Assembly: GCA_903880005.1 (NCBI GenBank)
Contig: CAIRNV010000203.1
Coordinates: forward strand, 1 to 63,349
From: an uncultured Verrucomicrobiota bacterium
Lineage (GTDB): Bacteria; Verrucomicrobiota; Verrucomicrobiia; Limisphaerales; UBA9464
DNA length: 63,349 nucleotides
Direction: 5' to 3'
Shown: piece after piece, positions 45,940 through 60,901 of the stretch
Layout: every line of letters begins with the position of its first letter
Position numbering within the stretch: the first letter of the stretch is position 1
Made by a program: the position numbers and the translations under genes
Notes under the pieces: model-generated
Database searches by the model: none
The model's input: the letters and a program-made list of their open reading frames with translations, nothing else
Told to the model about the DNA's origin: nothing

Positions 45940-46503
45940 ATGAAGTCACTCGTACGCATCCTTTCGATGGCCATCCTTGGAGTGGTGGTGTCGTCCCATG
46001 TCCTCGCCCAAGACGGCAACGCCGACAACGCCGGCGGCGGCGGCGGTCGTCGCAACCGCGGCGGCCAGGGCGGCGGCCCTGGCGGTCCCGGTGGTGGGAA
46101 CTGGGATCCCGCCCAGATGCGCCAACGCATGATGGAACGCATGCGCGAGCAATTTGCCGTGAAGGACGACGCCGAGTGGAAGCTGATCTCCGATCGCATC
46201 GAGAAGGTCAATGACGCCCGCCGCGAGTCCATGATGCGCGGCATGGGCATGATGTTTGGCGGCGGGCGCGGCGGCCGGGGCCCAGGCGGGCAGGGGGGTG
46301 GAGAGGCCATGCCGGAGCAGGAGGCCCTCCAGAAGGCGATCGAGGCCAACGCCTCGGCCGACGAGATCAAGTCCAAGCTGGGCAAGTATCGCGAGGCCTT
46401 GAAGGCCAAGGAGGCCAAGCTGACCAAGGCCCAGGACGAGTTGCGCGAGGTTCTTTCCGCCAAGCAGGAGGCCCAGGCCGTCCTGATGGGCCTGCTCAAG
46501 TAA
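45940..46503 (+). CDS. Exported Gly-rich helical hypothetical protein, first gene of the T2SS cluster
   Basis: Signal peptide (VLA|Q), Gly-rich segments, coiled C-terminus LREVLSAKQEA. Confidence 0.8.
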   Translation: MKSLVRILSMAILGVVVSSHVLAQDGNADNAGGGGGRRNRGGQGGGPGGPGGGNWDPAQMRQRMMERMREQFAVKDDAEWKLISDRIEKVNDARRESMMRGMGMMFGGGRGGRGPGGQGGGEAMPEQEALQKAIEANASADEIKSKLGKYREALKAKEAKLTKAQDELREVLSAKQEAQAVLMGLLK

Positions 46504-46573: not shown

Positions 46574-48340
46574 ATGGCCGCCGACAACACCCTCGACGCA
46601 CTCCTCGGGCGCATGGTCGCCGAACGGCAGTTGTCGGCAGCCGACGCCGAGCAGTACCGGTCTTCGCCGTCTTCCGTGGCCGGCGCGGACCCTGCCGAGC
46701 CCGACGTGCTTCGCTGGCTGGCCGCCGAGTACGCGGTTGGTTTCGACACGCTCGACGCCATCGACCCCGAGAAGGATCTACTGGGCCACTTCCCGGCTCG
46801 AATCCTCCTGCGCGAGGAATTGCTTCCCCTCCGGCAGTCCAACGGCCACGTCGAGGTCGCCACGGCCCGCCTCTTTGCCACGCAGGGCCTTGATGCGCTG
46901 CGTTCGTTGACCGGCCTTCGCCTCCAGCCCGTCCTCGCGCCGCGCGAGGCCATCCAGCGGGAGATGAAGAAGCATCTCGGCATCGGCGCCGACACGCTGG
47001 GCACGCTCGAGGAGGAGTCGGGCCTTCAGGTCGTGGACGAGGAGGGCGTGGGCGACACCGACCTCGACAACGCGGCCGAGGACGCGTCGATCATCCGGTT
47101 CGTGAACCAGGTGTTGCGTGACGCGATCGAGCTTCGCGCCTCGGACATCCACCTGGAACCCTTCGAGACCGAGCTTCGCATCCGGTACCGCATCGACGGC
47201 GTGTTGCAGGAGGTGCCCGTCCCGGCGCAGATCAAGCGTTTCCAGCCCGCCATCGTCTCGCGCGTCAAGATCCTCTCCCACCTCAACATCGCCGAGAAGC
47301 GGCTCCCCCAGGACGGCCGCATCAAGATCCGCATCGACGACGCCGAGGTGGACATCCGCGTCTCCGTCATCCCCATGCTCCACGGCGAGGCCGTGGTCAT
47401 GCGCTTGCTGCGCCAGAACTCGACCCTCCGTGGGATGGGCGAGCTCGGTTTGTCCGCGCGGGACCTCAAGAGCTTCCGCCGCGTCCTCGCGCTGCCGCAC
47501 GGGATCATCCTCGTCACGGGACCCACGGGCTCCGGCAAGACCTCGACGCTGTACACCGCGCTCAACGCCATCAACGACGCCGACACCAAGATCATCACGA
47601 TCGAGGACCCCATCGAGTACCAGCTCAAGGGCGTGAACCAAATCCAGGTGTCCGAGAAGTCCGGCCTCACCTTCGCCCGCGGCCTTCGCGCCATCCTGCG
47701 CCACGACCCCGACGTGCTGCTCATCGGCGAGATCCGGGACCAGGAGACGGCGCAGATCGCCGTGCAGGCCTCGCTGACCGGCCACTTGGTCTTCTCCACC
47801 CTGCACACCAACGACGCCCCGGGAGCCCTGACGCGGCTCGTGGACATGGGCGTCGAGCCCTATCTCGTGGCCTCGTCGCTCGAGGCCGTCCTTGCCCAGC
47901 GTCTAGTCCGTGTCCTGTGCCCGCATTGCCGCCAGCCGGACTCTTCGCCCGCCGCCGACGCGCTGCGTGCCGAGCTTCGGATGCCGGCGAGCCAAGTGCT
48001 GTACAAGGCCGTGGGCTGCCGTGAATGCCGCCAAACCGGCTATCACGGCCGACGCGCGATCTTCGAGTGGATGGACACCACCCCGGAAATCCGCCGCCTC
48101 ATCCTCAAGAACGCCTCGTCCGGCGAGATTCGTGAATCCGCCCGCCGCGCCGGCATGCGGTCGTTGTCCGAGGACGGTTGGCGCCTCGTGGCGGAGGGCA
48201 TCACGACGCCGGAGGAGGTCTTGCGCGTCACCAAGGACCAGTCCTCGGAGGAGGAGGAGGAACGCACGGCCGGGCAGGCCATGGCCACCGAGGCGGTGGT
48301 GGCGGGCGGGGCACCCCACTCATCCGGCGGGGCAACCTGA
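46574..48340 (+). CDS. gspE: T2SS ATPase GspE
   Basis: ASDIHLEP, RLPQDGR, GPTGSGKT, EDPIEY, GEIRD, STLHTND, CPHC...CREC. Confidence 0.95.
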   Translation: MAADNTLDALLGRMVAERQLSAADAEQYRSSPSSVAGADPAEPDVLRWLAAEYAVGFDTLDAIDPEKDLLGHFPARILLREELLPLRQSNGHVEVATARLFATQGLDALRSLTGLRLQPVLAPREAIQREMKKHLGIGADTLGTLEEESGLQVVDEEGVGDTDLDNAAEDASIIRFVNQVLRDAIELRASDIHLEPFETELRIRYRIDGVLQEVPVPAQIKRFQPAIVSRVKILSHLNIAEKRLPQDGRIKIRIDDAEVDIRVSVIPMLHGEAVVMRLLRQNSTLRGMGELGLSARDLKSFRRVLALPHGIILVTGPTGSGKTSTLYTALNAINDADTKIITIEDPIEYQLKGVNQIQVSEKSGLTFARGLRAILRHDPDVLLIGEIRDQETAQIAVQASLTGHLVFSTLHTNDAPGALTRLVDMGVEPYLVASSLEAVLAQRLVRVLCPHCRQPDSSPAADALRAELRMPASQVLYKAVGCRECRQTGYHGRRAIFEWMDTTPEIRRLILKNASSGEIRESARRAGMRSLSEDGWRLVAEGITTPEEVLRVTKDQSSEEEEERTAGQAMATEAVVAGGAPHSSGGAT

Positions 48341-48346
48341 CGTCGC

Positions 48347-49804
48347 ATGGCCTCGTTCCATTATCGCGCGTTGCAGGCCGACGGGTCGGTTGCGGAAGGG
48401 CAACTGGACGCGGCGGACCGGCGCGAGGCTTTGCGCGTGATCGCGGCGAAGGGGATGAGGCCAGTAAGGCTCACCGATGCGGGTGCTTCCGCGTCGGCGC
48501 CCGTGCTTCCGGCGCGGGCCGTGGCTCCGAAGGCTGGGGCGGCCTCGGGTTCGGGTCCTGCGTCGTCCAAGGGCCTCGCAACGGCCACCGGGGCGCCCAG
48601 TCCCACCGGCGCCGTTCGGAGTCCTGTAGTTGCCGGTTCGGGCCGCGTTGCCAGCCGTCCTGCGTCCAGGCCCGTAGCGCGGCCGACGCCTGCGCCCAAG
48701 GCGGCGAAGGCGGCTTCCAAGGCGGACGCGCCAGGGGGCGGGCTGAAGCTGTCGTTGGGCGGCGACCGGATCACGCCGCGGGTGCTGGAGAACTTCACGC
48801 GCCTGCTTTCGAGCCTGCTCGCGGCGGGCGTCCCGTTGAGCCGCGCGCTCGTGATCCTGATGCGCGAGGCCGCCTCGCCGGTGGCCGGGGCGCAATGGAA
48901 GCAGGTGCACGACGCCGTGGTGGACGGACTGTCGCTGGCGGAGGCGATGGGTCGTTCGCCCCAGACGTTCCCGCGGGTGTACGTGGCGATGGTGGAGGCG
49001 GGGGAGACGGGCGGGTTCCTGGATGTCGTGCTGGGGCAGATCGCGGACTTCCAGGCGCGGGAGAAGGAGATGCGTGGCAAGGTCATGACGGCGCTCCTGT
49101 ACCCGGTGATCCTGCTGTTCCTTGCGATCGGCGTGCTGGTGTTCCTGCTCGTGTTCTTCATTCCCCGTTTCCAGGGGATCTTCTCCGGCTTTGGCGCTGA
49201 ATTGCCGTTGATCACGCAGGTCATCGTGGGCACGAGCGAGGTGTTGCGCACGTGGGGGATCCTGCTCCTCGTGGCGCTCGGCGTCGGCGGGTATTCCCTC
49301 CGAACGTGGCTGGTATCGGAGGCGGGGCGGCGCGTGTGGGAGGGCTTCATCCTCAGGGCGCCCGTGGTGGGGCCGCTGGTGGCCCAGTTCTCGATGTCGC
49401 GCTTTTGCCGGATGCTGGGGACGCTGCTGGGTGCCGGCGTCCCCTTGGTCAACGCGCTCAACGTCGCCCGACGTTCCATTGGCAACCAGATCCTCGTCGA
49501 TGCGGTCGCCAACTCCATCGAGCGCGTGAAGGAAGGCAAGCAACTGGGGCCGAGCCTCGGCGATTGCCGTGACCTCTTCTCCGGCTCCACCCTTGAGATG
49601 ATCTCCGTCGCCGAGGAGTCCGGTCGCCTTGACACCGAGCTGGTCCGCATCGCGAACGTGACCGAGGGCGACCTCGACCGTCAGCTACGCACGGCCGTGG
49701 CCCTGGCCGAGCCGCTGATGCTGTTCTTCATCGCCGGCTTCATCGGCTTCATCTTCATCGGCATGGTCATCCCGATCTTTTCCCTTCAAGACCACATCAA
49801 GTAG
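48347..49804 (+). CDS. gspF: T2SS inner-membrane platform protein GspF
   Basis: LLAAGVPL, AGETGG, LLYP, AEESGRLD, AEPLM; long Ala/Pro insert near the N-terminus. Confidence 0.93.
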   Translation: MASFHYRALQADGSVAEGQLDAADRREALRVIAAKGMRPVRLTDAGASASAPVLPARAVAPKAGAASGSGPASSKGLATATGAPSPTGAVRSPVVAGSGRVASRPASRPVARPTPAPKAAKAASKADAPGGGLKLSLGGDRITPRVLENFTRLLSSLLAAGVPLSRALVILMREAASPVAGAQWKQVHDAVVDGLSLAEAMGRSPQTFPRVYVAMVEAGETGGFLDVVLGQIADFQAREKEMRGKVMTALLYPVILLFLAIGVLVFLLVFFIPRFQGIFSGFGAELPLITQVIVGTSEVLRTWGILLLVALGVGGYSLRTWLVSEAGRRVWEGFILRAPVVGPLVAQFSMSRFCRMLGTLLGAGVPLVNALNVARRSIGNQILVDAVANSIERVKEGKQLGPSLGDCRDLFSGSTLEMISVAEESGRLDTELVRIANVTEGDLDRQLRTAVALAEPLMLFFIAGFIGFIFIGMVIPIFSLQDHIK

Positions 49805-49818
49805 GCAATCCTGATCCC

Positions 49819-50271
49819 ATGAACGTCATGCACCTGTCGTCCCGTTCCCGCCTTGGAGCCGCGCGTCACGCGGGCTTCACCCTCATTGAGCTCCTCCTCG
49901 TGCTGGTCATCCTCGGCATCTTGGCCGCGATCGTCGTGCCCAAGTTCTCCGGCCGCACGGAGCAGGCCCGCACCACGGCCGCCGCGTCGCAGATCGCGAC
50001 CTTCGGCACGGCACTGGACGCCTTTGAGGTGGACATGGGCTACTATCCAAAGGGGCGGAACGGCCTCAAGGAGCTGGTGGACACCCCGCGCGATTCGTTG
50101 AAGTGGAAGGGCCCCTACATGAAGAACGCCATCCCCCAGGACCCTTGGGACCAGGATTACGTTTACGAGTGCCCCGGGAAGCACAACCCCTCTTCCTACG
50201 ACCTCTACTCCGTCGGGCCCGATGGCCGTGCAGGGTCGGAGGACGACGTGACCAACTGGGCGAAGAAGTAG
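49819..50271 (+). CDS. gspG: Major pseudopilin GspG
   Basis: G|FTLIELL, WKGPY, DPW...Y.Y..PG, YDLYSVGPDG. Confidence 0.96.
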   Translation: MNVMHLSSRSRLGAARHAGFTLIELLLVLVILGILAAIVVPKFSGRTEQARTTAAASQIATFGTALDAFEVDMGYYPKGRNGLKELVDTPRDSLKWKGPYMKNAIPQDPWDQDYVYECPGKHNPSSYDLYSVGPDGRAGSEDDVTNWAKK

Positions 50272-50330: not shown

Positions 50331-50993
50331 TTGAACGCCTCGCATTCCAGCAACCCCAGCGTCCCGGGCGTGGCGTTCACCTTGATTGAGCTGTTGCTCG
50401 TCATGGCGCTCCTGACCGTCGTCATGGCCCTCGTGTCGCCGTCGCTGGGGCCGTTCCTCCGGGGGCGGTCGCTGGGGTACGAGGTTCGCCGGTTCATCAA
50501 CCTGACGCACCTCGCCCAGTCGCGAGCCGCCCACGAGGGCGTGCCCATGCGTCTCTGGGTCGATCCGGACCTGCGGATGTATGGGATGGACCCGGAGTTT
50601 TCGCTCGAGGCCACGACGTCCACCACCACGCCGATCCCTGGCCAGCAGCAACCCGCTTCCGGCGGCCGTTCCATCGCGTACCCGCTGGCGTCGGATGTCC
50701 AGGTGGAGGCCGACCCGCGTTCCTGGGCTTCCATGTCGGGGAACACGTTCGCCCTCCAGTTCCGATGGGCCGCCGGACAGGGTGCCTTCGCGCAGGGACG
50801 CCGCATCACGTTCCGGTTCACGCCGGATGGTTCCATCGACGAAACGTCGCCGTGGGGGATTTGGTTCCGGAGCGACCGCGACCCCAGCTCCCGCCAAGCA
50901 GTCCGGCCTGGCGACGAGGTTTACGTGTCGCAGAACTACGCCCGTACCCGCTATGAGGTGCAGACGAACCAGCTTGCGATCCCGGTTCGCTAG
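50331..50993 (+). CDS. gspH: Minor pseudopilin GspH-like
   Basis: A|FTLIELLL prepilin motif, FRFTPDG; TTG start at 50331 or GTG at 50286. Confidence 0.75.
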   Translation: MNASHSSNPSVPGVAFTLIELLLVMALLTVVMALVSPSLGPFLRGRSLGYEVRRFINLTHLAQSRAAHEGVPMRLWVDPDLRMYGMDPEFSLEATTSTTTPIPGQQQPASGGRSIAYPLASDVQVEADPRSWASMSGNTFALQFRWAAGQGAFAQGRRITFRFTPDGSIDETSPWGIWFRSDRDPSSRQAVRPGDEVYVSQNYARTRYEVQTNQLAIPVR

Positions 50994-51363
50994 CGATGGG
51001 GCGGACCGGCGGGGTTTTACCCTGGCCGAGACCCTGGCCGCGCTCGCCTTCGTGGCGGTCGTGATCCCTGTCGCCGTGCATGGGGTGCGAATCGCCAACC
51101 TCGCCGCCCAGGTGGCCGATCGGCAGCTCGTTGCGATGCGCGTGGCGGATCGTGTCCTCAACGAGATCATCGCCACGGGGCGTTGGAACACCGCGGGCTC
51201 AGGGAGCGTCCAGGAGGGGCGTCACACTTTCGCGTGGCGTTCGCAGTCGGTCTCGTGGCAGCGGGCGACGCTTCGCGAGTTGACCGTCTCCGTCACCTTC
51301 AACGTCCAGGGGGTCGAAAGGGTGGCGAGGGCCTCGACCGTCGTGGATTCCGCCCAGCCATGA
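50953..51363 (+). CDS. gspI: Minor pseudopilin GspI-like
   Basis: G|FTLAETL, short protein, operon position. Confidence 0.75.
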   Translation: MRCRRTSLRSRFASDGADRRGFTLAETLAALAFVAVVIPVAVHGVRIANLAAQVADRQLVAMRVADRVLNEIIATGRWNTAGSGSVQEGRHTFAWRSQSVSWQRATLRELTVSVTFNVQGVERVARASTVVDSAQP

Positions 51364-52121
51364 AGGCCTGGCGTCCATGTCTCGATGGCCTGCGTCCCCA
51401 TCCCCGCATCGGGGCGTTCACCCTCATCGAGCTCCTGCTCGCCATCACCCTCTCCGCCATCATCATCTCGGCGACCGTCGCGGTCCTGTTCGGCGCGTTG
51501 CGGCTCCGCAACGAGACCGAGCGACGCTCCGATGCCTCGACGGCGCTGCAGCAGGCCCTGTCCGTCCTTCGACGTGACCTCGCCAACATCGCGCTTCCCG
51601 CCTCCGACTCGACCAACGCGATGGCCGGGGCGCTGGTGTACGGGGGCATCACGGGCATCAATGACCCGGCCGGCACCGGCATGCAGTTGTTCACCACCAC
51701 GGGCCTGGTGACCGACATGGCTCGCTGGGGCGACTTGCAGAAGGTGGGCTACGTGCTGCGCCTTCCCACCAATGCCGCGGCCAACCTGGGTCGTGACCTC
51801 CATCGTGTGGTGACACGCAACCTCCTGCCCGTCCTCGCCGAGGCCTACGACGACCAGCTTCTCCTGCAAAACGTCGAGTCCTTCCAGTTGTCATTCTTCG
51901 ACGGCACCACATGGCGCATCGCCTGGGGCGGCACCAACGAGACCGTCTCGCTCCCACGCGCCATCCGCGTCGATCTGGTCCTCAATGACATCGATCCCGC
52001 GGACCTGGCGCGGGGCAACCTGGGCAACCGAACCCAGCTTCCCTTCCAGTTGGTCGTGCCCGTCGTCGTGACCCCGGCCACCAACTCGACCTTCATCTCG
52101 GGCGCCGGGGGTGCACCATGA
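51360..52121 (+). CDS. gspJ: Minor pseudopilin GspJ-like
   Basis: A|FTLIELL, LRRDL, FFDGTTW...LPRAIRV. Confidence 0.8.
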   Translation: MKAWRPCLDGLRPHPRIGAFTLIELLLAITLSAIIISATVAVLFGALRLRNETERRSDASTALQQALSVLRRDLANIALPASDSTNAMAGALVYGGITGINDPAGTGMQLFTTTGLVTDMARWGDLQKVGYVLRLPTNAAANLGRDLHRVVTRNLLPVLAEAYDDQLLLQNVESFQLSFFDGTTWRIAWGGTNETVSLPRAIRVDLVLNDIDPADLARGNLGNRTQLPFQLVVPVVVTPATNSTFISGAGGAP

Positions 52122-53515
52122 ACGCGCGGCGAAGGTTTCACCGTGGCGGGCCGCAGGCACCGTCGCGGGGCTCCACGCTCGTCATCGTGCTGTGGATTGC
52201 CCTGGGATTGGTTTCCCTCGGGCTCTACTTCGGCCAGTCGTCCGCGTTGGCATTGCGGGCCTCCGACCAGCGGGCGGCCTCCATCGAGGCCGAGCAGGCG
52301 ATCCAAGGGGCCACGCGTTACGCGGCCTACGTCCTCACCAACCTCGACATCCCGGGCGTCCTCCCGCAGTTCCAGATCGCCCCCACCTTCCGCCCGGTGA
52401 CCGAGAACGTCCGGGTCGGGGATTCGGCGTTCTGGTTCCTCGGTCGTGACCCGGACCTCCTCGCCTCCACGCCGGGGCGCAACGTCCAGCCGGTGTTTGG
52501 ACTCGTGGACGAGGCGTCGAAGCTGAACCTGAACACGGCCACGCTTGAGATGCTGGAGGCGCTGCCTCGCATGACCCCGCAGCTCGCCGCCGCCATCATG
52601 GACTGGCGCGACGAGGACGACGAGGTCTCGACGGACGGCGCGGAGGAGAGCACCTACCAAAGGCTCAACCCCGCCTACCGCTGCAAGAACGCCCCGTTTG
52701 AGTCCATCGAGGAGCTTCGGCTCGTCTATGGCATGACCCTGGACATCCTCGCCGGCGAGGATGCGAACCGGAATGGCATCCTCGATCCCAACGAGGACGA
52801 CTACGACTCCACGCCCCCGCTCGACAACCGCAACGGGCGGCTCGAGCCCGGCCTGTGGGAGTACGTCACCGTTCACTCGCAGGAATCCCTCACCACCACC
52901 AACGGCACCGCCAAGGTCTCCCTGGGTGCACAGGGACGACAACAGCTCGCGACCCTGCTGCAGGAGCGGCTCGGAAACCAACGTGCCAACGAGATCCTCC
53001 AGCGCGTGGGCAACCAAAACCCGGCCGGTCTCCTCAACTTCTTCGTCCAGTCGGGAATGTCCGTGGACGAGTTTGCCCAGGTGGAGGGAGACCTCACGGC
53101 GGGTGATGGCCAGACGCCCCGGCAAGGACTCATCAACGTCAATTCCGCACCGGAGGCCGTCCTCGCCTGCATTCCGGGCATCGGCATCGACATGGCCCCG
53201 CAGCTCGTCTCCTACCGGCAATCCAACCCCAGCCGGCGCAATACGGTGGCATGGGTCGCCGAGATCCTTGGGACCCAACGTTCGCTGCAAGCTGGCCGTT
53301 ACCTCACCGGGCGCTCGTCGGTCTATTCGGCAGACGTCTGCGCCGTGGGTCACCTTGGAAGGGGCTACCGACGGTGCCGGATCATCTTCGACGCCTCCGA
53401 GGGAGGCCTCCGGATCGTCCAGCGCGCCGATTGGTCCCACCTGGGGTGGGCCTTGGGGTCGCAGACATGGCAGCAGATGCAACAGCAACGGCAATTGACG
53501 CAGAACACGCGATGA
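52118..53515 (+). CDS. gspK: Minor pseudopilin GspK
   Basis: RG|STLVIVLW (no Glu5), DEASKLNLN, AIMDWRD, SIEELRLV, INVNSAPEAVL. Confidence 0.88.
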   Translation: MNARRRFHRGGPQAPSRGSTLVIVLWIALGLVSLGLYFGQSSALALRASDQRAASIEAEQAIQGATRYAAYVLTNLDIPGVLPQFQIAPTFRPVTENVRVGDSAFWFLGRDPDLLASTPGRNVQPVFGLVDEASKLNLNTATLEMLEALPRMTPQLAAAIMDWRDEDDEVSTDGAEESTYQRLNPAYRCKNAPFESIEELRLVYGMTLDILAGEDANRNGILDPNEDDYDSTPPLDNRNGRLEPGLWEYVTVHSQESLTTTNGTAKVSLGAQGRQQLATLLQERLGNQRANEILQRVGNQNPAGLLNFFVQSGMSVDEFAQVEGDLTAGDGQTPRQGLINVNSAPEAVLACIPGIGIDMAPQLVSYRQSNPSRRNTVAWVAEILGTQRSLQAGRYLTGRSSVYSADVCAVGHLGRGYRRCRIIFDASEGGLRIVQRADWSHLGWALGSQTWQQMQQQRQLTQNTR

Positions 53516-54954
53516 TCGAACGGCTCAAGCCCCGCGGCAGCTCACCGGTCCTCGGCCTCTCCTTTGACGGGGCCGCCGTCGAGGCCGTCCTCGTGCGCCC
53601 CGGCAACGGGCAAGCCGAGGCGTCGGCGCCCGTGACGTTCCAGCTTCCGGCCGAAATCCTTTCAAGCGACCCGGTCGCGGTGGGCCGCGCGCTGCGGGAG
53701 TCCCTCGACAAGGCCGGGCTGGGCACCCGGCGTTGTGCCGTGGCCCTGCCGGCGTCCTGGGTCTTCGCATCCAGCATCCCGCTGCCCGACCTCGCGCCGG
53801 AGGATGCCGAGGGATTCGTCGAGCTCGAGGTCGAGCGATCCTTCCCACAAGGGTCCGATCAACTGGCCATTGCCCGGCATGAATGGAAGGACGCATCGGG
53901 CCTGCCCCAGATCACGCTCGTTGCCGTCCCGGTGGAGCACCTCGAGCGGCTCGAGCAGGTCCTGCGCGCCGCCCGCATGCAACCAGTCTCGATCGCGCCA
54001 GCCCTCACCGAGATGCAGCACCTGGTCCCCTCCGAGTCGCCGGCGCGCATCGACTTCCTTGCCTCGCCCACGTCCGTGGCCTTGGCCATCGGGTGTGGCG
54101 AGGGCCTCGTCCTGCATCGTTGCCTCGACGATGTCGTCGCCGTCGCGGGCGGCCAGCCCTCCGTCGCCCCAGACCGACTCCAACGCGAGCTGCGCGTCAC
54201 GCTGGGTCAGCTTCCCGACGCCACCCGGCAATCCCTGGCGCGAGCCCGCATTTTTGGCGGCGGCCCCCTCGCCGACGCCCTCCAGCAGGTCCTGGCGGCC
54301 ATCGCGCCTCGCCTTGCCATGAGCGTCGTCCGGGCCGACCGCGTCCCGGGCAACCGAGACGCATCGTTGCGCATCACGCCGGGGATTCCCGCGACCGCCG
54401 CCTTGGCCATCGCCGCGCGCCACCTTGGAGGTGGGCCGGCCTCGTTCGAGTTCCTGGCGCCACGCGTCTCCCCGTGGCAGCAGCTTGCCACCCGTTTTTC
54501 GTCCGGGCGCGCGGCGCACTACGGGCTCGCCGCCGCCGCCGTCGTCGCGCTCACGGCCGGGGCCTTCCTCGTCCAGCAAGTGCGGCTGATGTCCCTCCGC
54601 TCCCAGTGGAATGCCATCGCCAAGACCGCCGCCCACGTCGAGGAACTGCAAGCCAACCTCAAGAAGTACCGGCCGTGGTTCGACGAGTCGGTCCCGTCCC
54701 TCCTGGTCCTTCGCACCCTGACCATGGCGTTCCCCGAGGATGGTGCGCTGACGGCGAAGACGGTGGAGCTCCGCGAGGGGGCCATCGTCGTCTGCTCCGG
54801 CACGGCCAAGGATTCCTTCACCCTCAACAGCACCCTCGAGAAGCTCCGCACCGCGCCCGAGGTGCGCGACGTCACCGTGGACCAGATGCGCGGCAAGTCC
54901 CCCGTGCAGTTCTCCTTCAACTTCAAGTGGGACTCCTCCGCACGCACGCCATGA
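53512..54954 (+). CDS. GspL-like (PilM/PilN-like) assembly platform protein
   Basis: Actin-like cytoplasmic N-terminal part, single TM, short coil and ferredoxin-like periplasmic domain; operon position. Confidence 0.7.
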   Translation: MIERLKPRGSSPVLGLSFDGAAVEAVLVRPGNGQAEASAPVTFQLPAEILSSDPVAVGRALRESLDKAGLGTRRCAVALPASWVFASSIPLPDLAPEDAEGFVELEVERSFPQGSDQLAIARHEWKDASGLPQITLVAVPVEHLERLEQVLRAARMQPVSIAPALTEMQHLVPSESPARIDFLASPTSVALAIGCGEGLVLHRCLDDVVAVAGGQPSVAPDRLQRELRVTLGQLPDATRQSLARARIFGGGPLADALQQVLAAIAPRLAMSVVRADRVPGNRDASLRITPGIPATAALAIAARHLGGGPASFEFLAPRVSPWQQLATRFSSGRAAHYGLAAAAVVALTAGAFLVQQVRLMSLRSQWNAIAKTAAHVEELQANLKKYRPWFDESVPSLLVLRTLTMAFPEDGALTAKTVELREGAIVVCSGTAKDSFTLNSTLEKLRTAPEVRDVTVDQMRGKSPVQFSFNFKWDSSARTP

Positions 54955-55493
54955 ACCTGGATCCCGAGCAACGCAAGAAGCTGCTCCTCGTCGTCGCCCT
55001 CGTCGGCGTCGGCCTTCTTCTGGGCGACCGCGTCGTCCTCGGCCCGCTCCTCAAGTCGTGGAACGCCCGACAGGCGGAGATCACCGAGCTCAAGAAGCGC
55101 ATCGCCAAGGGCGAGCAGCTCGTCGCCCGCCTCAAGCCCGTCGAGGCCCGGTGGTCCGATCTGGCCTCCAACGCGCTCCCCAAGCTCACGTCCGCCGCCG
55201 AGGGACGGGTCCTGGAGGCCCTCGACCGCTGGTCCAAGGCCGCCGCCGTCAACGTCACGTCCGTCAAGCCGCAGTGGAAGCAGCTCGACGACGAGTACTC
55301 CACCTTCGAGTGCCACGTGGATGCCACCGGCAACCTCGCCACCCTCACCCGATTCCTCTACGAGGTCGAACGCGACAAGCTGGCCGTCCGGGTGGAGGCC
55401 ATCGAGCTCGCCGCCCGCGACACCGACGCCGCCCAGCTCACCCTCGGCCTCCACGTGAGCGGCCTCGTCCTCAACCTTCCCGAACGCCGATGA
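54951..55493 (+). CDS. GspM/PilO-like protein
   Basis: N-terminal TM, coil, ATGNLATLTRFLYEVE ferredoxin-like motif. Confidence 0.75.
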   Translation: MNLDPEQRKKLLLVVALVGVGLLLGDRVVLGPLLKSWNARQAEITELKKRIAKGEQLVARLKPVEARWSDLASNALPKLTSAAEGRVLEALDRWSKAAAVNVTSVKPQWKQLDDEYSTFECHVDATGNLATLTRFLYEVERDKLAVRVEAIELAARDTDAAQLTLGLHVSGLVLNLPERR

Positions 55494-56506
55494 ACTCCTT
55501 CCTCGAACGAAGCCGTGACGATGCAGGTGGGACGGTCGTGCTGGCCGGATCCGCTGCCGCAATCACTTCCCTCCCGGCTGAATCCTTCCGGGCCAGGCTT
55601 CTCGCCATCCGGGCGGCCATCGGCTTGCTCGCCGGGGCGCTCGCGCTTCAAGGGTTCGCCCAAGACGTCGGGGCACAGGCTGCCGCCAACGAGTCGCCCC
55701 GGATCGCGGTTTCCGCTCAGCCCGAGCCGGACGACACGGACGAGCCCGAGTCCTCCGACGAGGACGACGGCGGATCCACCAACGGCGTTCCCGTCCTCAC
55801 CGTCCCGGGATCAACCAACGCGCCCGGGACCAACGCGCCCGGCACGAACGCCCCGGCGCGCAGGTCCTCCCGACGCTCCTCCCGTCGTTCCCCTGAACGC
55901 ACCGGCATCGCCGATTGGCGCCCTTCCAGCCGCTCGGGCGCCTCCTCCCCCAAGGCCGCCTCCACCAACGGCCCCGCCTCGTCCGACTACGCCTTCTTCC
56001 AGGTCGTCAACGACCGCAACATCTTCAATTCCTCCCGCGTCCCCAACCGTCCCGACCGCCCGCGATCCACCGAGGCCCGTCGCACCCCCAAGGTCGAGTC
56101 GGTCTCGCTCGTGGGAACCCTGCGCTACGAGAAGGGCGTCCTCGCCTTCTTCGACGGCACGAGCTCCGACTACAGAAAGGCCCTCAAGCCCGGCGACGCC
56201 GTGGCGGGCCATCGCATCGTCTCCGTGACGGATTCCACCGTCCGCCTTGTCGTCCGGGACGGCGCCGTGGACCTCAAGGTCGGCAACCAACTTCGTCGCG
56301 AGGACGAGGGTGATTGGAAGCTGGCCGACGGCGTCACGCTGGGCGCCTCGTCCTCGACGGGCGTTGCAACCCCTTCATCCTCTTCCGCCTCCACGAACGC
56401 ATCATCCACCACATCGTCGGCTGCCTCGTCCGGTTCCTCCGGCGGCGGCGCCGAGGAAATCCTCCGGCGCCTTCGGGAGCGCCGTGCCCAGGAGAACAAG
56501 CAATGA
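55490..56506 (+). CDS. GspC/PilP-like protein with long disordered linker
   Basis: Hydrophobic N-terminal segment, acidic and Ser-rich linker, HR-like SLVGTL...LKPGDAVAGHRIVSVTDSTV; directly before the secretin genes. Confidence 0.6.
   Translation: MNSFLERSRDDAGGTVVLAGSAAAITSLPAESFRARLLAIRAAIGLLAGALALQGFAQDVGAQAAANESPRIAVSAQPEPDDTDEPESSDEDDGGSTNGVPVLTVPGSTNAPGTNAPGTNAPARRSSRRSSRRSPERTGIADWRPSSRSGASSPKAASTNGPASSDYAFFQVVNDRNIFNSSRVPNRPDRPRSTEARRTPKVESVSLVGTLRYEKGVLAFFDGTSSDYRKALKPGDAVAGHRIVSVTDSTVRLVVRDGAVDLKVGNQLRREDEGDWKLADGVTLGASSSTGVATPSSSSASTNASSTTSSAASSGSSGGGAEEILRRLRERRAQENKQ
55814..55855 (+). repeat. 15-bp coding tandem repeat (TNAPG x3)
   Basis: ACCAACGCGCCCGGG ACCAACGCGCCCGGC ACGAACGCCCCG. 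Confidence 0.8.
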
Positions 56507-58215
56507 ACAACAACATCCCTCGCCTCCCCATCCTCGCCCTCGTCGTCATCGTCGCCTTGGGCGCCCGGCTCCACGGCCAGGAGGTCACGCCCCCACCTGC
56601 GACGGCTGCGCCCCAAGCCAGCCCGACGGACAAGTCCAAGGCCGATGCCGCGCCGGCCGCGGCGGTCGCCGCCCCTGGCACGAATGCGCCCGTAGCCGCC
56701 CCGAAGCCGCCGCCGGAGCCCTTGCCGGCACCGGAGCCATTGCCCACCGCGCCCGACGGGACCCCCATGCTTCGCCTGAACTTCCGCGGCGCGCCCCTTG
56801 AGACCGTCCTGAATTACCTCAGCGAGGCCGCCGGCTACATCATCGTCCTCGACACCGAGGTGAAGGGGCGCATCGACGCGTGGTCCGCGCAGCCCGTCAC
56901 CCGCGACGAGGCGTTCCAAATCCTCGAGACGGCGCTCGCCAAGAACGGCTACACGGCCCTTCGCTCCGGCCGCACCCTCACCATCGTCTCCAAGGACGCC
57001 GCCAAGAAGCGCGACATCCCCGTCAAGTCCGGGAACAACCCCGACTCGATCCCGAAGGACGAGCAGGTCGTCACCCAGATCATTCCCATCCGCTTCATCA
57101 GCGCCACCGCGCTGACCACCGACCTCGCGCCGCTTCTGCCCTCCGAGGCCACGATGACGGCCAACGAGGCCGGGAACGCCCTCGTCATCACCGACACCCA
57201 AGCCTCCATCAAGCGCATCGCGGAGATCATCCGCGCCCTCGACACGTCCCTCGCCAACTCGTCCTCCATCAAGGTCTTCCCCCTGCGCTTCGCGGACGCC
57301 AAGGAGACCGCAACCGTCATCAAGGACCTGTTCCCCTCCACCGACTCACGGGCCGGCGGCAACGCCGGGGGCAACAATGGCGGACGCGGCGGTTTCGGAG
57401 GGTTTCCGGGCGGGTTCGGGGGATTCCCGGGCGGGGGCATGGGCGGCGGGGGTGCCGGCGGCGGCGGCCGGGGCGGTGCCTCCAGCTCCGGGGCGGGTAA
57501 TCGCGCGGCCGCCTCCAAGGTCGTCGCCGTCGCCGACGAACACTCCAACTCCGTCATCGTGAATGCCCCCGAGGATGCCATGCCCTCGATCGAGGAGCTC
57601 ATCCGCTCCGTGGACACCGACGTCCAGGACATCACGGAGCTCCGCGTCTTCCGCCTCGAGTTCGCCGACCCGACCGAGATGGCCGACGTCCTCTCGGGGT
57701 TGTTTCCCGACGACACCAACAGCCGCAGCGGCAACAACGCCAACAACCGCGGGCAACGGTTTGGCGGCTTTGGCATGTTCGGCGGCATGAACCGCGGGGG
57801 AGGCACGGGCGGGGCCAGCGGCAACTCCAGCGACCGCACCCTCAAGAAGGGCAAGGTCACCGCGGTGCCGGATGCCCGCACCTCCTCGATCATCGTGTCG
57901 GCCGACCGCACCCTGATGCCCCAGATTGCCGAGATGGTGAAGCAGCTCGACGCCAACCCGGCGCGCAAGCAGCAGGTCTTCGTGTACAGCCTGGACAACG
58001 CGGATCCCCAGCAGGTCCAGACCGTGCTTCGCGGGCTCTTCGAGCGCGCGGGCAGCAACAACCGGTCCACCCAGGGGCAGCAACAGCAAAGCTCCTTCCT
58101 CACCACCCGCTCCACCCAGCAACAGCAACAGCAGAACAACGTCAATCGTTCGTCCGGCTTCGGCTCCGGTGCCGGCGGCGGCGGCGGCGGCTTTGGCGGC
58201 GGCCGCGGCAACTGA
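56503..58215 (+). CDS. Secretin N-terminal subunit (N0, three N domains and half of a fourth; no secretin barrel)
   Basis: Signal peptide; LNFRGAPLETVL (N0), repeated xFxLxFAD...DxxSNSxIV...IxxLD units; ends in a Q/G-rich tail. Confidence 0.88.
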   Translation: MNNNIPRLPILALVVIVALGARLHGQEVTPPPATAAPQASPTDKSKADAAPAAAVAAPGTNAPVAAPKPPPEPLPAPEPLPTAPDGTPMLRLNFRGAPLETVLNYLSEAAGYIIVLDTEVKGRIDAWSAQPVTRDEAFQILETALAKNGYTALRSGRTLTIVSKDAAKKRDIPVKSGNNPDSIPKDEQVVTQIIPIRFISATALTTDLAPLLPSEATMTANEAGNALVITDTQASIKRIAEIIRALDTSLANSSSIKVFPLRFADAKETATVIKDLFPSTDSRAGGNAGGNNGGRGGFGGFPGGFGGFPGGGMGGGGAGGGGRGGASSSGAGNRAAASKVVAVADEHSNSVIVNAPEDAMPSIEELIRSVDTDVQDITELRVFRLEFADPTEMADVLSGLFPDDTNSRSGNNANNRGQRFGGFGMFGGMNRGGGTGGASGNSSDRTLKKGKVTAVPDARTSSIIVSADRTLMPQIAEMVKQLDANPARKQQVFVYSLDNADPQQVQTVLRGLFERAGSNNRSTQGQQQQSSFLTTRSTQQQQQQNNVNRSSGFGSGAGGGGGGFGGGRGN

Positions 58216-58265
58216 TGCCGTCCTTCCCATCCCCGGGTCCCAACTCGCAACACGCTCCACTCCTC

Positions 58266-59549
58266 ATGAATCGCCTTGCACAACGCGCCTCAGCGATCCT
58301 CCTCGCCGCCGCCTTCACCGCGCCCGCCCTCGCCCAGTTCCAGGGATTCGGCGGCCAGGGCGGAGGCGCCCGACGCTCCGGCTCCGGCTCCGGCTCCAGC
58401 ACCGCCCGCGAGTACCCCAACAACACCGACGTCGGCGACGCCATGATCTCCTTCGATCCGGAGACCCGGAAGATCATCGTCATCACCGACGACAAGACCA
58501 ACCTGCAGATCAAGGACGTCATCACCAGCCTCGACAACCCGCGCCCCCAGGTGCTCATCAAGGTCGTCTTCCTCGAAGTCACCCACAACGACGCCTCCGA
58601 CATCGGCGTCGAGGGCGGCTACACGCGGCAGCTCGGCAACACCGGCACGGGCAGCTTCGCCAATGCGTTTGGCGCCTCAGGCCTTTCCTCCGCGGCCACG
58701 TCCGCGGTGCCCAACGCCCTCGGCCAAAACGTCCAGAGCATGCTCCCGACGCCTCCGGGCGCCGGCCTCTACCAGGTCCTGGGCACGGACTTCCAAGCCA
58801 CCCTCCGTGCCATCGCCCAGGCCGGCCGTGCCGAGATCCTCTCGCGTCCCTCCATCCTCGCCCGCAACAACCAGCCCGCCACCATCTCCCTCGGCCAGCA
58901 GGTTCCCCTCGTCTCCAATACCCAGTTCAGCGCCATCAACGGACAGGTCAACACCGTCTCCTACCAGAACGTCGGCATCATCCTTCGCGTCACCCCCTTC
59001 ATCACCCCGCAGGGGCTCGTCGAGATGATCGTCTCCCCCGAGATCTCCTCCCTGGCCGAGCGCTCCACCTGGGTCCCCATCTCGGCCGGCGCCCTCGCGC
59101 CTGTCGTGAACTCCCGCGTTGCCGACACCGTCGTCGTGGTTCCCGACAGCCAAACCGTGGTCATCGGCGGTCTCATGCAAAACCAGATCTCCGAGTCCGA
59201 AAGCAAGATCCCGTACCTCGGCGACATCCCCTGGCTCGGGAACGCCTTCAAGCGAAAGCAGAAGTCGAACGTCAAGACCGAGCTGATGATCTTCCTCACC
59301 CCCATCGTCATCCCGGCACCGTCCCAGCTCGCCGCCATGTCGGCGGAGGAACGCTCCAAGATGATGCTGCGCCCGAAGTCCCTTCCCCAGATCCAGCTCG
59401 AGAACCTCGTGGATCAATTACCCGACAAATCCTCGGGCACGAAGCCCAGCAAGAAGACGACCTCCGTCCAGGACGCACCCCAGGCGCCCAAGGCCCCAAC
59501 CGTGCCCGACGCCAAGTCCAAGGCCGTCCCCGCCCCGGCGCGTCGGTAG
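58266..59549 (+). CDS. gspD: Secretin C-terminal subunit (half N domain and secretin barrel)
   Basis: Own signal peptide (ALA|Q); PQVLIKVVFLEV, NNQPATI.LG.QVP, VGIILRVTP, VVIGGL, KIPYLGDIPWLG, KTELMIFLTP; alternative start at 58215. Confidence 0.9.
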   Translation: MNRLAQRASAILLAAAFTAPALAQFQGFGGQGGGARRSGSGSGSSTAREYPNNTDVGDAMISFDPETRKIIVITDDKTNLQIKDVITSLDNPRPQVLIKVVFLEVTHNDASDIGVEGGYTRQLGNTGTGSFANAFGASGLSSAATSAVPNALGQNVQSMLPTPPGAGLYQVLGTDFQATLRAIAQAGRAEILSRPSILARNNQPATISLGQQVPLVSNTQFSAINGQVNTVSYQNVGIILRVTPFITPQGLVEMIVSPEISSLAERSTWVPISAGALAPVVNSRVADTVVVVPDSQTVVIGGLMQNQISESESKIPYLGDIPWLGNAFKRKQKSNVKTELMIFLTPIVIPAPSQLAAMSAEERSKMMLRPKSLPQIQLENLVDQLPDKSSGTKPSKKTTSVQDAPQAPKAPTVPDAKSKAVPAPARR

Positions 59550-59738
59550 GCGCGTGTCCCATCCATTCCCACACGCGACGGCGGATGGGTGGGCCGGCTG
59601 CCTCCAACCCTCGGAAACGTGGCAGGGCCGTCTTGGCCCTGGCGGGATCACGTCCAGCGGCAGGATGCCGCTGCCACTCTGCCCCCCGGCACGCAGAGGT
59701 GCGGCATCCTTCCCGCCACGTGAGGACACGCAGCCTAC
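59546..59738. repeat. Nested REP-like palindromes between convergent genes
   Basis: Outer GTAGGCGCGTGTCC ... GGACACGCAGCCTAC; inner GTGGCAGGGCCGTCTTGGCCCTG (59619) and AGCGGCAGGATGCCGCTGCCAC (59656-59677). Confidence 0.65.
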
Positions 59739-59899
59739 ATGGGCCGAGCCTTCGGCTCCACCGGAGGGTTTGGCTGATCCCCAGCCGAACGAACGTTTTC
59801 AGGTGCACCCCATGAACCGGGCTCCTGGGGTTGCGAGAAACCGCCAGGCGGGGAGGTGGCGCCCGGGACGGGTGCGATCCCACGGGACATGGTTGTGTT

Positions 59900-60901
59900 T
59901 CAGGACACGCGACCGGGCGCGTCGGTCCATCCCAGCGATTGCCGCACGAGATCCAGATGGTTCCCCTCGGGCGGCCATGGGGCGACGAGGTATCCGCCGT
60001 CCTTGAACAACTGGATCCCGCTGGGGGACGGGCAAAGGACGACGCGGAAGTCACGCCAGCACCGGGCATCGCGCAGGGCGGCGGTGCAACGGCGGACTGT
60101 GTGCCCCGCCCACGGGACGCAGGGCATCCCCGCGAGCCAACCGCACGCTCGCAGGATCCACGGGGTGTGCAGGTGCCCGATCACGGTCGCCGCGATGCAC
60201 GGAAGCGCCCGACGCACGCCGTCCAACCGCGCGAGGAAGGGAAGCGCGGTGGGGTCGTGGCAGAACAAGACCACCCTCCTTCCCCGCGTCGCCGCCTCCC
60301 CGAAGAGGGCGTCGATGGCCCCCAGGTGTTCTCGGTGGGCCCGTTCCCACGTCTCCTGTTCCCCCGCCAGGCCCTCCGCCCGGAACACCGGCCATGCGGC
60401 GAGCGTGGAGGTGATGCCCACCCACCTCCATCCGGGGAAATCCTCGTGCCACAGCCTCGGCAGGCCCAGCTCGGCCTCGCATCGCTCGAGGCTTCGCCAG
60501 CGCGGCCCGCCCGCGCCGCCCACGAGGCTTTTCTTGCCGAGTTCATGGTCCCCGATGACGCCCCGCACGCGGTGTCCATGGGCTGCACGCAACTCGCCCA
60601 AGGCCTCGGCCGCGCTTTCCATGGCGGCGTCGTCGCTCACCCCGACGAAGGCCGTGTCGAGGGAATAGTCCCCGTTGGCCACCACGCGCGTGATGCCCGG
60701 CTCGCGCGCGAGGATGTCACCGAGCCGATGGTTGTGGGCCATGGGGTCGGCCAGCCAGACGTACCGGCGCAGGAGGCGTGCTGTGGCGAGGGCCAGCCAC
60801 CCGGCGGGCAAGGCTTGGTCGAACCCGCGGCGCTGCCGCTCGCGGGGGCCGGCGCGGTGCAGGTCGCTCACCACCAGCAAGCGGCCGGCGTCGCGGTTCA
60901 T
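59900..60901 (-). CDS. Metallophosphoesterase (calcineurin-like)
   Basis: SDLH, NGDY, GDHE, FCHDP, IGHLH. Confidence 0.82.
   Translation of the reverse strand: MNRDAGRLLVVSDLHRAGPRERQRRGFDQALPAGWLALATARLLRRYVWLADPMAHNHRLGDILAREPGITRVVANGDYSLDTAFVGVSDDAAMESAAEALGELRAAHGHRVRGVIGDHELGKKSLVGGAGGPRWRSLERCEAELGLPRLWHEDFPGWRWVGITSTLAAWPVFRAEGLAGEQETWERAHREHLGAIDALFGEAATRGRRVVLFCHDPTALPFLARLDGVRRALPCIAATVIGHLHTPWILRACGWLAGMPCVPWAGHTVRRCTAALRDARCWRDFRVVLCPSPSGIQLFKDGGYLVAPWPPEGNHLDLVRQSLGWTDAPGRVS

Follow-up and report, generated by a model that had tools for sequence, protein, structure and literature searches.

A type II secretion system secretin encoded by two neighbouring genes in a freshwater member of the Verrucomicrobiota and in many related bacteria

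The stretch of DNA analyzed here (the window, 63,349 nucleotides) is contig CAIRNV010000203.1 of assembly GCA_903880005.1, from an uncultured freshwater bacterium of the phylum Verrucomicrobiota, order Limisphaerales. In this bacterium and in many of its relatives the secretin of their type II secretion system (T2SS) is encoded by two neighbouring genes. In the window the pair forms the 3' end of a plus-strand gspE-F-G-H-I-J-K-L-M operon, identified by Pfam searches of the upstream open reading frames (ORFs). Gene 1 (GspD-N) codes for the periplasmic part of the secretin and gene 2 (GspD-C) for its pore-forming part. A preliminary description of this DNA had assigned both ORFs, with these coordinates and domains, and ORF calls, Pfam and TIGR02517 agree with it. 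The features of the pair are the following.

56503..58215, plus strand: gene 1 (GspD-N), 570 amino acids, periplasmic secretin part (ORF, Pfam, TIGR02517 and AlphaFold2 (AF2) model)
56503..56577, plus strand: signal peptide of gene 1, residues 1-25, read from the sequence
56767..57030, plus strand: N0 domain, gene 1 residues 89-176 (PF21305 and AF2)
57067..57948, plus strand: three whole Secretin_N domains, N1 (residues 189-249), N2 (255-370) and N3 (378-482) (Pfam and AF2)
57967..58050, plus strand: N4a, gene 1 residues 489-516: strand 1 and helix 1, the first half of the N domain next to the barrel
58051..58215, plus strand: gene 1 tail, Gln/Asn-rich then Gly-rich, ending with TGA (consensus of orthologues)
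58216..58265, plus strand: intergenic spacer, 50 nucleotides (nt)
58266..59549, plus strand: gene 2 (GspD-C), 427 amino acids, pore-forming secretin part (Pfam, TIGR02517 and structure matches)
58266..58334, plus strand: signal peptide of gene 2, residues 1-23, ending in APALA before QFQ; read from the sequence, with an AF2 helix at residues 3-16
58335..58439, plus strand: Gly/Ser-rich linker, residues 24-58, ending in R-E-Y-P-N-N-T-x-V-G
58440..58541, plus strand: N4b, gene 2 residues 59-92: strands 2 and 3 and helix 2, the second half of the N domain next to the barrel
58545..59315, plus strand: secretin barrel domain, residues 94-350 (PF00263, E value 8.7e-49)
59316..59549, plus strand: Lys/Pro-rich C-terminal tail with stop codon, residues 351-427

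The signal peptide of gene 1 is followed by a Pro/Ala-rich linker that ends at residue 88, by N0 (PF21305, E 2.8e-14, residues 92-157) and by four stretches matched by the Pfam family Secretin_N (PF03958, E 1.2e-40). For an AF2 model made from 78 orthologues the mean predicted local distance difference test score (pLDDT) is 69.1; residues 1-63 are of low confidence, N0 has a pLDDT of about 90, and N1, N2 and N3 each run strand-helix-strand-strand-helix, with disordered Gly/Phe-rich loops between helix 1 and strand 2 in N2 (residues 284-334) and N3 (414-442). The fourth stretch is only the beginning of a domain. When the last 87 residues were scanned alone, they matched only positions 1-26 of the 69 in the Secretin_N profile (E 0.0057, 17.3 bits), and the model holds a helix at residues 502-516, preceded by an expected strand 1 that is unassigned and followed by a tail of low confidence. 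This tail contains a conserved L-x-T/N-R motif, of which L533 and R536 are invariant in the split family.

Gene 2 supplies the remainder. It matches positions 29-69 of the same 69-position profile (E 0.012, 16.2 bits), and its AF2 model, with a mean pLDDT of 66.9, shows two strands (residues 60-64 and 69-73) and a helix (76-90) at a pLDDT of about 80, after a disordered region at residues 19-53. The linker motif R-x-Y-x-N-x-T-x-V-G is conserved in the split family, Y50 and G57 being invariant. The modelled fold matches solved secretins with Z scores of 12-13 starting at model residue 52-53, which in GspD chains corresponds to about residue 260-263, the middle of N3; a profile of the gene-2 orthologues matches XcpQ (5wln) from residue 277 with E 1.5e-56, and E. 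coli GspD (5wq7) from residue 266. The C-terminal tail is poorly conserved, with a mean pairwise identity of 0.34, columns filled in 39 of 78 rows and low AF2 confidence. The signal peptide that the preliminary description had recognized at the head of this second gene is real: a small-x-small cleavage motif followed by Q is found in 71/78 orthologues (the other seven have HAA before QAP or similar), and 75/78 carry a Lys or Arg within the first 15 residues.

The break between the two genes thus falls within the N domain nearest the barrel, in the loop that leads from helix 1 to strand 2, and the two partial Secretin_N matches are complementary and do not overlap (positions 1-26 in gene 1, 29-69 in gene 2). 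The T2SS secretin profile TIGR02517 is divided in the same manner, gene 1 covering positions 1-300 (227.6 bits) and gene 2 positions 287-599 (246.9 bits); jointly they cover the whole profile, and each by itself scores below the 351.35 bits asked of a single polypeptide. Across the pair we found the features of a T2SS GspD, namely N0, tandem Secretin_N domains, the barrel and neighbouring gsp genes. In the window the two genes are in different frames. The TGA of gene 1 (58213-58215) is followed in its own frame by a second TGA at 58267-58269, so that read-through meets a stop, as had been described. An alternative ATG at 58215 overlaps the first TGA, and the start that relatives conserve is another ATG, at 58266, immediately ahead of the signal peptide. 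The preliminary description had also placed the fission in N3. As to position this stands, since the domain cut is the one next to the barrel and GspD chains align from the middle of N3; as to identity it does not, because the cut domain is the fourth Secretin_N domain, equivalent to N3 by position and yet not the N3 of a three-domain GspD.

In N2, in N3 and in the divided N4, the loop that joins helix 1 to strand 2 is of one type, rich in Gly and with Phe at regular intervals (GFGG, FPGG), seen at 57340-57510 (N2), 57730-57830 (N3), 58140-58212 (gene 1 tail) and 58335-58370 (gene 2 head), and retained in the consensus of the 78 orthologues. Multiplied by the many subunits of a ring, these loops would place a dense flexible mass in or around the vestibule. 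The number of N domains appears to vary in the family: residues 339-405 of gene 1 (second half of N2, first half of N3) are filled in only 39-44 of the 78 orthologues, and those labelled Opitutales apparently have one whole N domain fewer, yet always retain the orphan half-domain.

The division into two genes is shared by the relatives of this bacterium. We used two samples, the relatives of the window genome (set 1) and one genome per species (set 2); their genomes partly overlap, and the counts are not independent. All 41 genomes of set 1 contain a secretin match, about 30 of them with a clear gene-2 orthologue. Twenty loci were fetched; a contig end truncates one, and the other 19 contain both genes, the split being present in 19/19, each with a stop codon belonging to gene 1, then a diverged spacer, then the ATG and signal peptide of gene 2. 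Set 2 gave 80 loci, 79 with both genes and one that begins inside gene 2; in 79/79 the genes are split and adjacent, and none is fused. TGA, TAG and TAA all serve as stop codons of gene 1. The spacers of the 79 loci range from -4 to 168 nt (mostly 14-45 nt), apart from an outlier of 890 nt at a locus with an early gene 1 stop, and the relative frame of the two genes is the same at some loci and different at others. Within the order of the window genome, a gene-2 orthologue (E <= 1e-60) was found in 100/151 sampled genomes, representing 68 of 99 genera, and for 89 of these 100 the best match sits in a stop-to-stop frame no longer than 600 codons, too short for both parts. Open frames of 900-1300 codons near some orthologues were considered as fused genes and rejected: they are empty GC-rich frames, with gene 1 in another frame or with its own stop.

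The titles of the split-locus records name Verrucomicrobiota, Pedosphaera, Limisphaerales, Opitutales, Opitutaceae and Opitutus, a few genome bins bearing plainly wrong taxon labels, and identity between orders is 46-57% for both halves. Internal stops are absent from 77/78 gene-1 orthologues found and from 77/77 gene-2 orthologues aligned; locus L102, whose gene 1 stops early, was excluded from the gene-1 alignment. Mean pairwise identity among the 78 orthologues is 0.61 in N4a, 0.62 in N4b and 0.63 in the barrel, and falls to 0.31-0.44 in the flanking tails and 0.38-0.41 in the loops; N4a is present in 78/78 aligned gene-1 orthologues. Conservation across 19/19 and 79/79 loci excludes chance for the arrangement. 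The two-gene split that the preliminary description had proposed to look for in related Verrucomicrobiota is there, with stops, spacers and frames that vary from locus to locus, and we have hardly any doubt that it is genuine, ancient and lineage-wide.

Fused forms were sought among proteins by searches that scored only the 8000 candidates sharing most words with the query, which makes them strong and non-exhaustive. The 120 best near-length relatives of gene 1 (448-609 amino acids, 52-96% identical; proteins of up to 998 amino acids were eligible) all have N0 and Secretin_N, and a secretin barrel was found in 0/120; the 120 best near-length relatives of gene 2 (340-462 amino acids, 57-94% identical) all have the barrel, with N0 in 0/120. 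Among proteins of at least 749 amino acids, 418 match at E <= 1e-20, and the best 120 of them, only 34-44% identical to gene 2, are single-chain GspDs whose named members are planctomycete (Humisphaera, Tepidisphaeraceae, Phycisphaerae). No fused form was thus found among close relatives, either in the scored searches or at the loci of sets 1 and 2. The planctomycete proteins are the nearest fused homologues. They are single chains without an internal signal peptide, several having more N domains, and their last N domain shows the same sequence pattern on both sides of a low-complexity loop of about 70-110 residues located at the verrucomicrobial cut site. In P0004 (1027 amino acids, labelled Humisphaera borealis), residues 575-605 are the counterpart of gene 1 residues 490-520, and the alignment with gene 2 starts at residue 684, opposite gene 2 residue 57; some 80 residues of low complexity, rich in Asn, Gln and Gly, lie between the aligned halves. 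When nine fused proteins, ten gene-1 tails and ten gene-2 heads were aligned as separate rows, the tails fell on strand 1, helix 1 and the early loop of the fused proteins, the heads covered the remainder of the loop, strands 2-3 with helix 2, and the beginning of the barrel, and tails and heads overlapped solely within the low-complexity loop. These single chains bear out the earlier proposal that the break lies in a disordered loop of the barrel-proximal domain.

We also built a maximum likelihood tree of the gene-2 region by a quick search. It comprises 78 split forms, 40 fused forms from planctomycetes, taken as every third one of the 120 long proteins above, and two distant fused verrucomicrobial proteins as outgroup. 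All 78 split forms lie on one side of a branch with a Shimodaira-Hasegawa-like approximate likelihood ratio test (SH-aLRT) value of 100; the outgroup branches are long, and the rooting is consequently uncertain. The outgroup proteins (L107 and L108) are single-chain GspDs of a distant subfamily, from the same class but other orders, and gene 2 found nothing at E <= 1e-30 in their genomes. The simplest history suggested by these comparisons would be a single fission in a pre-existing disordered loop, followed by vertical descent. The ancestor would have been a single-chain GspD of the Planctomycetes-Verrucomicrobia lineage whose barrel-proximal N domain contained a long disordered loop; its gene would have broken once within that loop, and the downstream piece would have acquired a start codon and a Sec signal peptide.

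We think it likely that the two separately exported polypeptides make up a functional T2SS secretin with one domain rebuilt in trans. GspD-C, with its half-domain and barrel, would form the outer-membrane pore, and GspD-N, with N0, N1-N3 and the other half-domain, would form the periplasmic vestibule extending to the inner-membrane platform. Once in the periplasm, GspD-N would contribute strand 1 and helix 1, and GspD-C the strands 2-3 and helix 2 on which they pack; the rebuilt strand-helix-strand-strand-helix domain would tie the vestibule to the pore non-covalently. Rebuilding in trans had been proposed in the preliminary description; the exact complementarity of the halves on which it was based stands, and the joint itself, which we infer, is probably formed in this way. 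A conserved strand-helix unit of 26 residues cannot fold alone, so that the most economical partner of N4a is N4b. Furthermore, in the AF2 models gene 2 has strands 2-3 and helix 2 with no supplier of strand 1 and helix 1 in cis, and gene 1 has helix 1 without a strand partner. The sheet order of this fold is 1-3-2; strand 1 would then be added at an edge, which makes assembly in trans plausible. Co-folding of GspD-C residues 44-360 with GspD-N residues 484-545, using orthologue alignments, gave a score of 0.18 against a mark of 0.32; it was run without controls and counts neither way. Some observations weigh against a rebuilt secretin. Either half-domain match taken alone is under the Pfam cut-off of 28.2 bits, contigs from RNA libraries (X16 and X17) reach only parts of gene 1 and are no proof of transcription, and the conserved motifs beside the break (L-x-T-R and R-x-Y-x-N-x-T) could signal a joint other than the old domain re-formed. 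The same motifs may also add to the joint.

Both proteins might be real and work in the same machine with the domain not rebuilt, GspD-C being a short self-sufficient secretin and GspD-N a separate periplasmic ring or adaptor that docks by other contacts, for instance via its conserved tail motifs, or solely through the inner-membrane platform. Solved secretins that are short and have few N domains do exist (pIV 7ofh, RcpA 8odn), the motifs flanking the break are new and conserved, and the trans joint is itself deduced. However, the hydrophobic strand-helix pattern of N4a is kept at an identity of 0.61 against 0.63 for the barrel, which is hard to explain for a non-autonomous piece of 26 residues; N4a occurs in every one of the 78 gene-1 orthologues, and the genes are adjacent at all 79 loci. 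We therefore regard separate action, by either way of docking, as rather unlikely.

A further reading, which we put forward as doubtful, keeps the half-domain complementation and makes it reversible: the GspD-C pore would assemble alone, GspD-N held by the platform would engage it by its half-domain, and the envelope would be spanned only when the two are engaged. In that case the vestibule may be filled by the Gly/Phe loops of N2, N3 and the divided N4, acting as a flexible barrier. The detachable or exchangeable vestibule imagined in the preliminary description remains speculation.

It is very improbable that the break stems from a frameshift in assembly or sequencing, or that the pair is a recent pseudogene of a single-chain gspD. 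The break does adjoin a GGC-rich repeat (58151-58203) at which the contigs from four public runs over 57700-58700 all end, none crossing 58151-58340, and the genome assembly is fragmented into 492 contigs. Against this, the set 1 and set 2 loci share the break in many assemblies with differing stops, spacers and frames, a conserved signal peptide follows it, and both halves keep their identity between orders with internal stops virtually absent, so that for practical purposes this explanation is refuted. Programmed read-through, frameshifting or hopping to give one chain, considered owing to the overlap of TGA and ATG at 58213-58217 and without any support found, is barely conceivable, since read-through of the TGA runs into the in-frame stop at 58267-58269, relatives vary in frame, spacer (-4 to 168 nt) and in all three stop codons, and the fused product would have a signal peptide inside a periplasmic loop.

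Upstream of the pair, the window contains the following genes of the operon.

46574..48340, plus strand: gspE ATPase, the first recognizable gene of the operon (Pfam T2SSE, E 3.2e-139, and MshEN)
48347..49804, plus strand: gspF platform protein (Pfam T2SSF, E 9.3e-56)
49819..50271, plus strand: gspG major pseudopilin (Pfam T2SSG, E 9.3e-32, and N_methyl)
50361..53515, plus strand: four minor pseudopilin genes, H-like (50361-50993), I (50986-51363), J (51360-52121) and K (52118-53515)
53512-54954, plus strand: GspL/PilM-like gene (PilM_2, E 3.6e-04, weak)
54951-55493, plus strand: GspM/PilO-like gene (T2SSM_b, E 8e-05, 22.9 bits, cut-off 21.7; weak)
55490..56506, plus strand: protein of 338 amino acids, whose stop overlaps the start of gene 1 (ATGA)

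The minor pseudopilins were recognized by N_methyl, T2SSI (E 4.1e-05, below the cut-off), T2SSJ (E 1.1e-13) and T2SSK_1st/T2SSK, and their start codons were picked by us. The 338-residue protein, which has no Pfam match reaching the cut-off, is rich in Ser, Thr and Pro, with a membrane-like N-terminal segment and a beta-rich C-terminal part; from its position it could be a candidate GspC/PilP-like connector to the N0 domain of gene 1. Directly 5' of gspE, at 45940-46503 on the plus strand, is the gene of a small protein for which no Pfam match was found; it has a signal peptide and stretches rich in Gly, and its C-terminal part is charged and helical. The genes downstream of gene 2 are on the opposite strand (ROK kinase). 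A promoter and terminator scan of 57800-60200 gave no promoter-like site and a single terminator-like one, inside gene 2 on the minus strand, a yield that does not exceed that of the shuffles. Public sequencing runs containing region 57700-58700, in whole or in part, number 20 from 11 studies and are labelled lake water or freshwater metagenomes; 12 of the 20 contain at least half of its sampled words, and three may stem from the sample that gave this genome.

Five further loci with a secretin domain are present in the genome, and only the pair described here is inside a gsp operon. In many related genomes another secretin domain with 35-42% identity to gene 2 (G025:C16:32377-33249, G012:C7:115329-116123, G013:C8:18746-19528 and about 15 more) is found within open frames of about 3600-4800 codons; the case in the window genome, G000:C358:18646-19209, is at a contig end. 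These frames may code for a giant protein, and long frames in GC-rich genomes can also be empty.

The canonical GspDs of E. coli K12 (5wq7), V. cholerae (5wq8) and P. aeruginosa (XcpQ, 5wln) have the same domain order and a gsp operon; gene 2 matches them from the middle of N3 with E 1e-46 to 1e-56 and Z 12-13, and gene 1 matches N0-N3. The verrucomicrobial secretin differs from them in having two polypeptides, two signal peptides, one extra N domain, and long Gly/Phe-rich loops in N2, in N3 and at the break. Secretins encoded in parts have been described elsewhere. According to the relevant passages of PMC3574062 and PMC4311626, the rhizobial-type type III secretion system (T3SS) has its secretin in an N-terminal and a C-terminal gene, RhcC1 and RhcC2 (also HrcIIC1/HrcIIC2, in Pseudomonas syringae), in a lineage-conserved manner; these genes are non-adjacent there, having other genes between them or lying on different segments, and the C-part is attributed to a Tad locus by partial gene replacement (PMC4311626, citing Abby and Rocha 2012). 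RhcC1/RhcC2 thus belongs to a type III system, whereas the neighbours of the verrucomicrobial pair are T2SS genes and its best models and structures are those of GspD, not SctC. A Tad origin is likewise not seen here, as gene 2 matches GspD at E 1e-56 against 2e-30 for RcpA, and the two genes are adjacent at 79/79 loci.

There is also a likeness by description to the mitochondrial T2SS-derived system of some protists, in which, in the sections of PMC8134430 that concern it, GspD is split into several polypeptides (GspD, GspDL, GspDN1-3), GspDN3 corresponding to the N-terminal half and GspDN2 to the C-terminal half of a single Secretin_N domain. By that account the same domain is cut at about the same place as in the verrucomicrobial pair. 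The mitochondrial set, as given there, is eukaryotic and nuclear-encoded, has import signals, lacks N0 and GspC, and has free-standing half-domains, whereas the verrucomicrobial pair belongs to a bacterial operon and its half-domains are attached to N0-N3 and to the barrel. The cut at the same loop may possibly reflect a shared history or a general rule for dividing this domain. A search of the full-text literature, with subscription journals and supplementary files outside its reach, found no report of a split bacterial T2SS secretin. Split secretins are thus already known elsewhere, and the two-gene T2SS secretin is a new bacterial variant.

In the whole phylum, a match over the curated GspD cut-off was obtained in only 79/301 sampled genomes. 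Most of the other sampled Verrucomicrobiota have ordinary single-chain GspD matches (profile positions 1-597), many genomes having two such genes. Since neither half of the split pair scores over the GspD cut-off, automatic pipelines may call such type II systems secretin-less. The barrel-proximal N domain, usually deemed part of the stable core of a secretin, is here kept divided across at least two verrucomicrobial orders, in what amounts to a bacterial counterpart of the mitochondrial half-domain GspDN proteins as they are presented in PMC8134430. The split pair provides a natural system in which to study how vestibule and gate are joined, in what order a secretin assembles, and whether a covalent link between its parts is needed.

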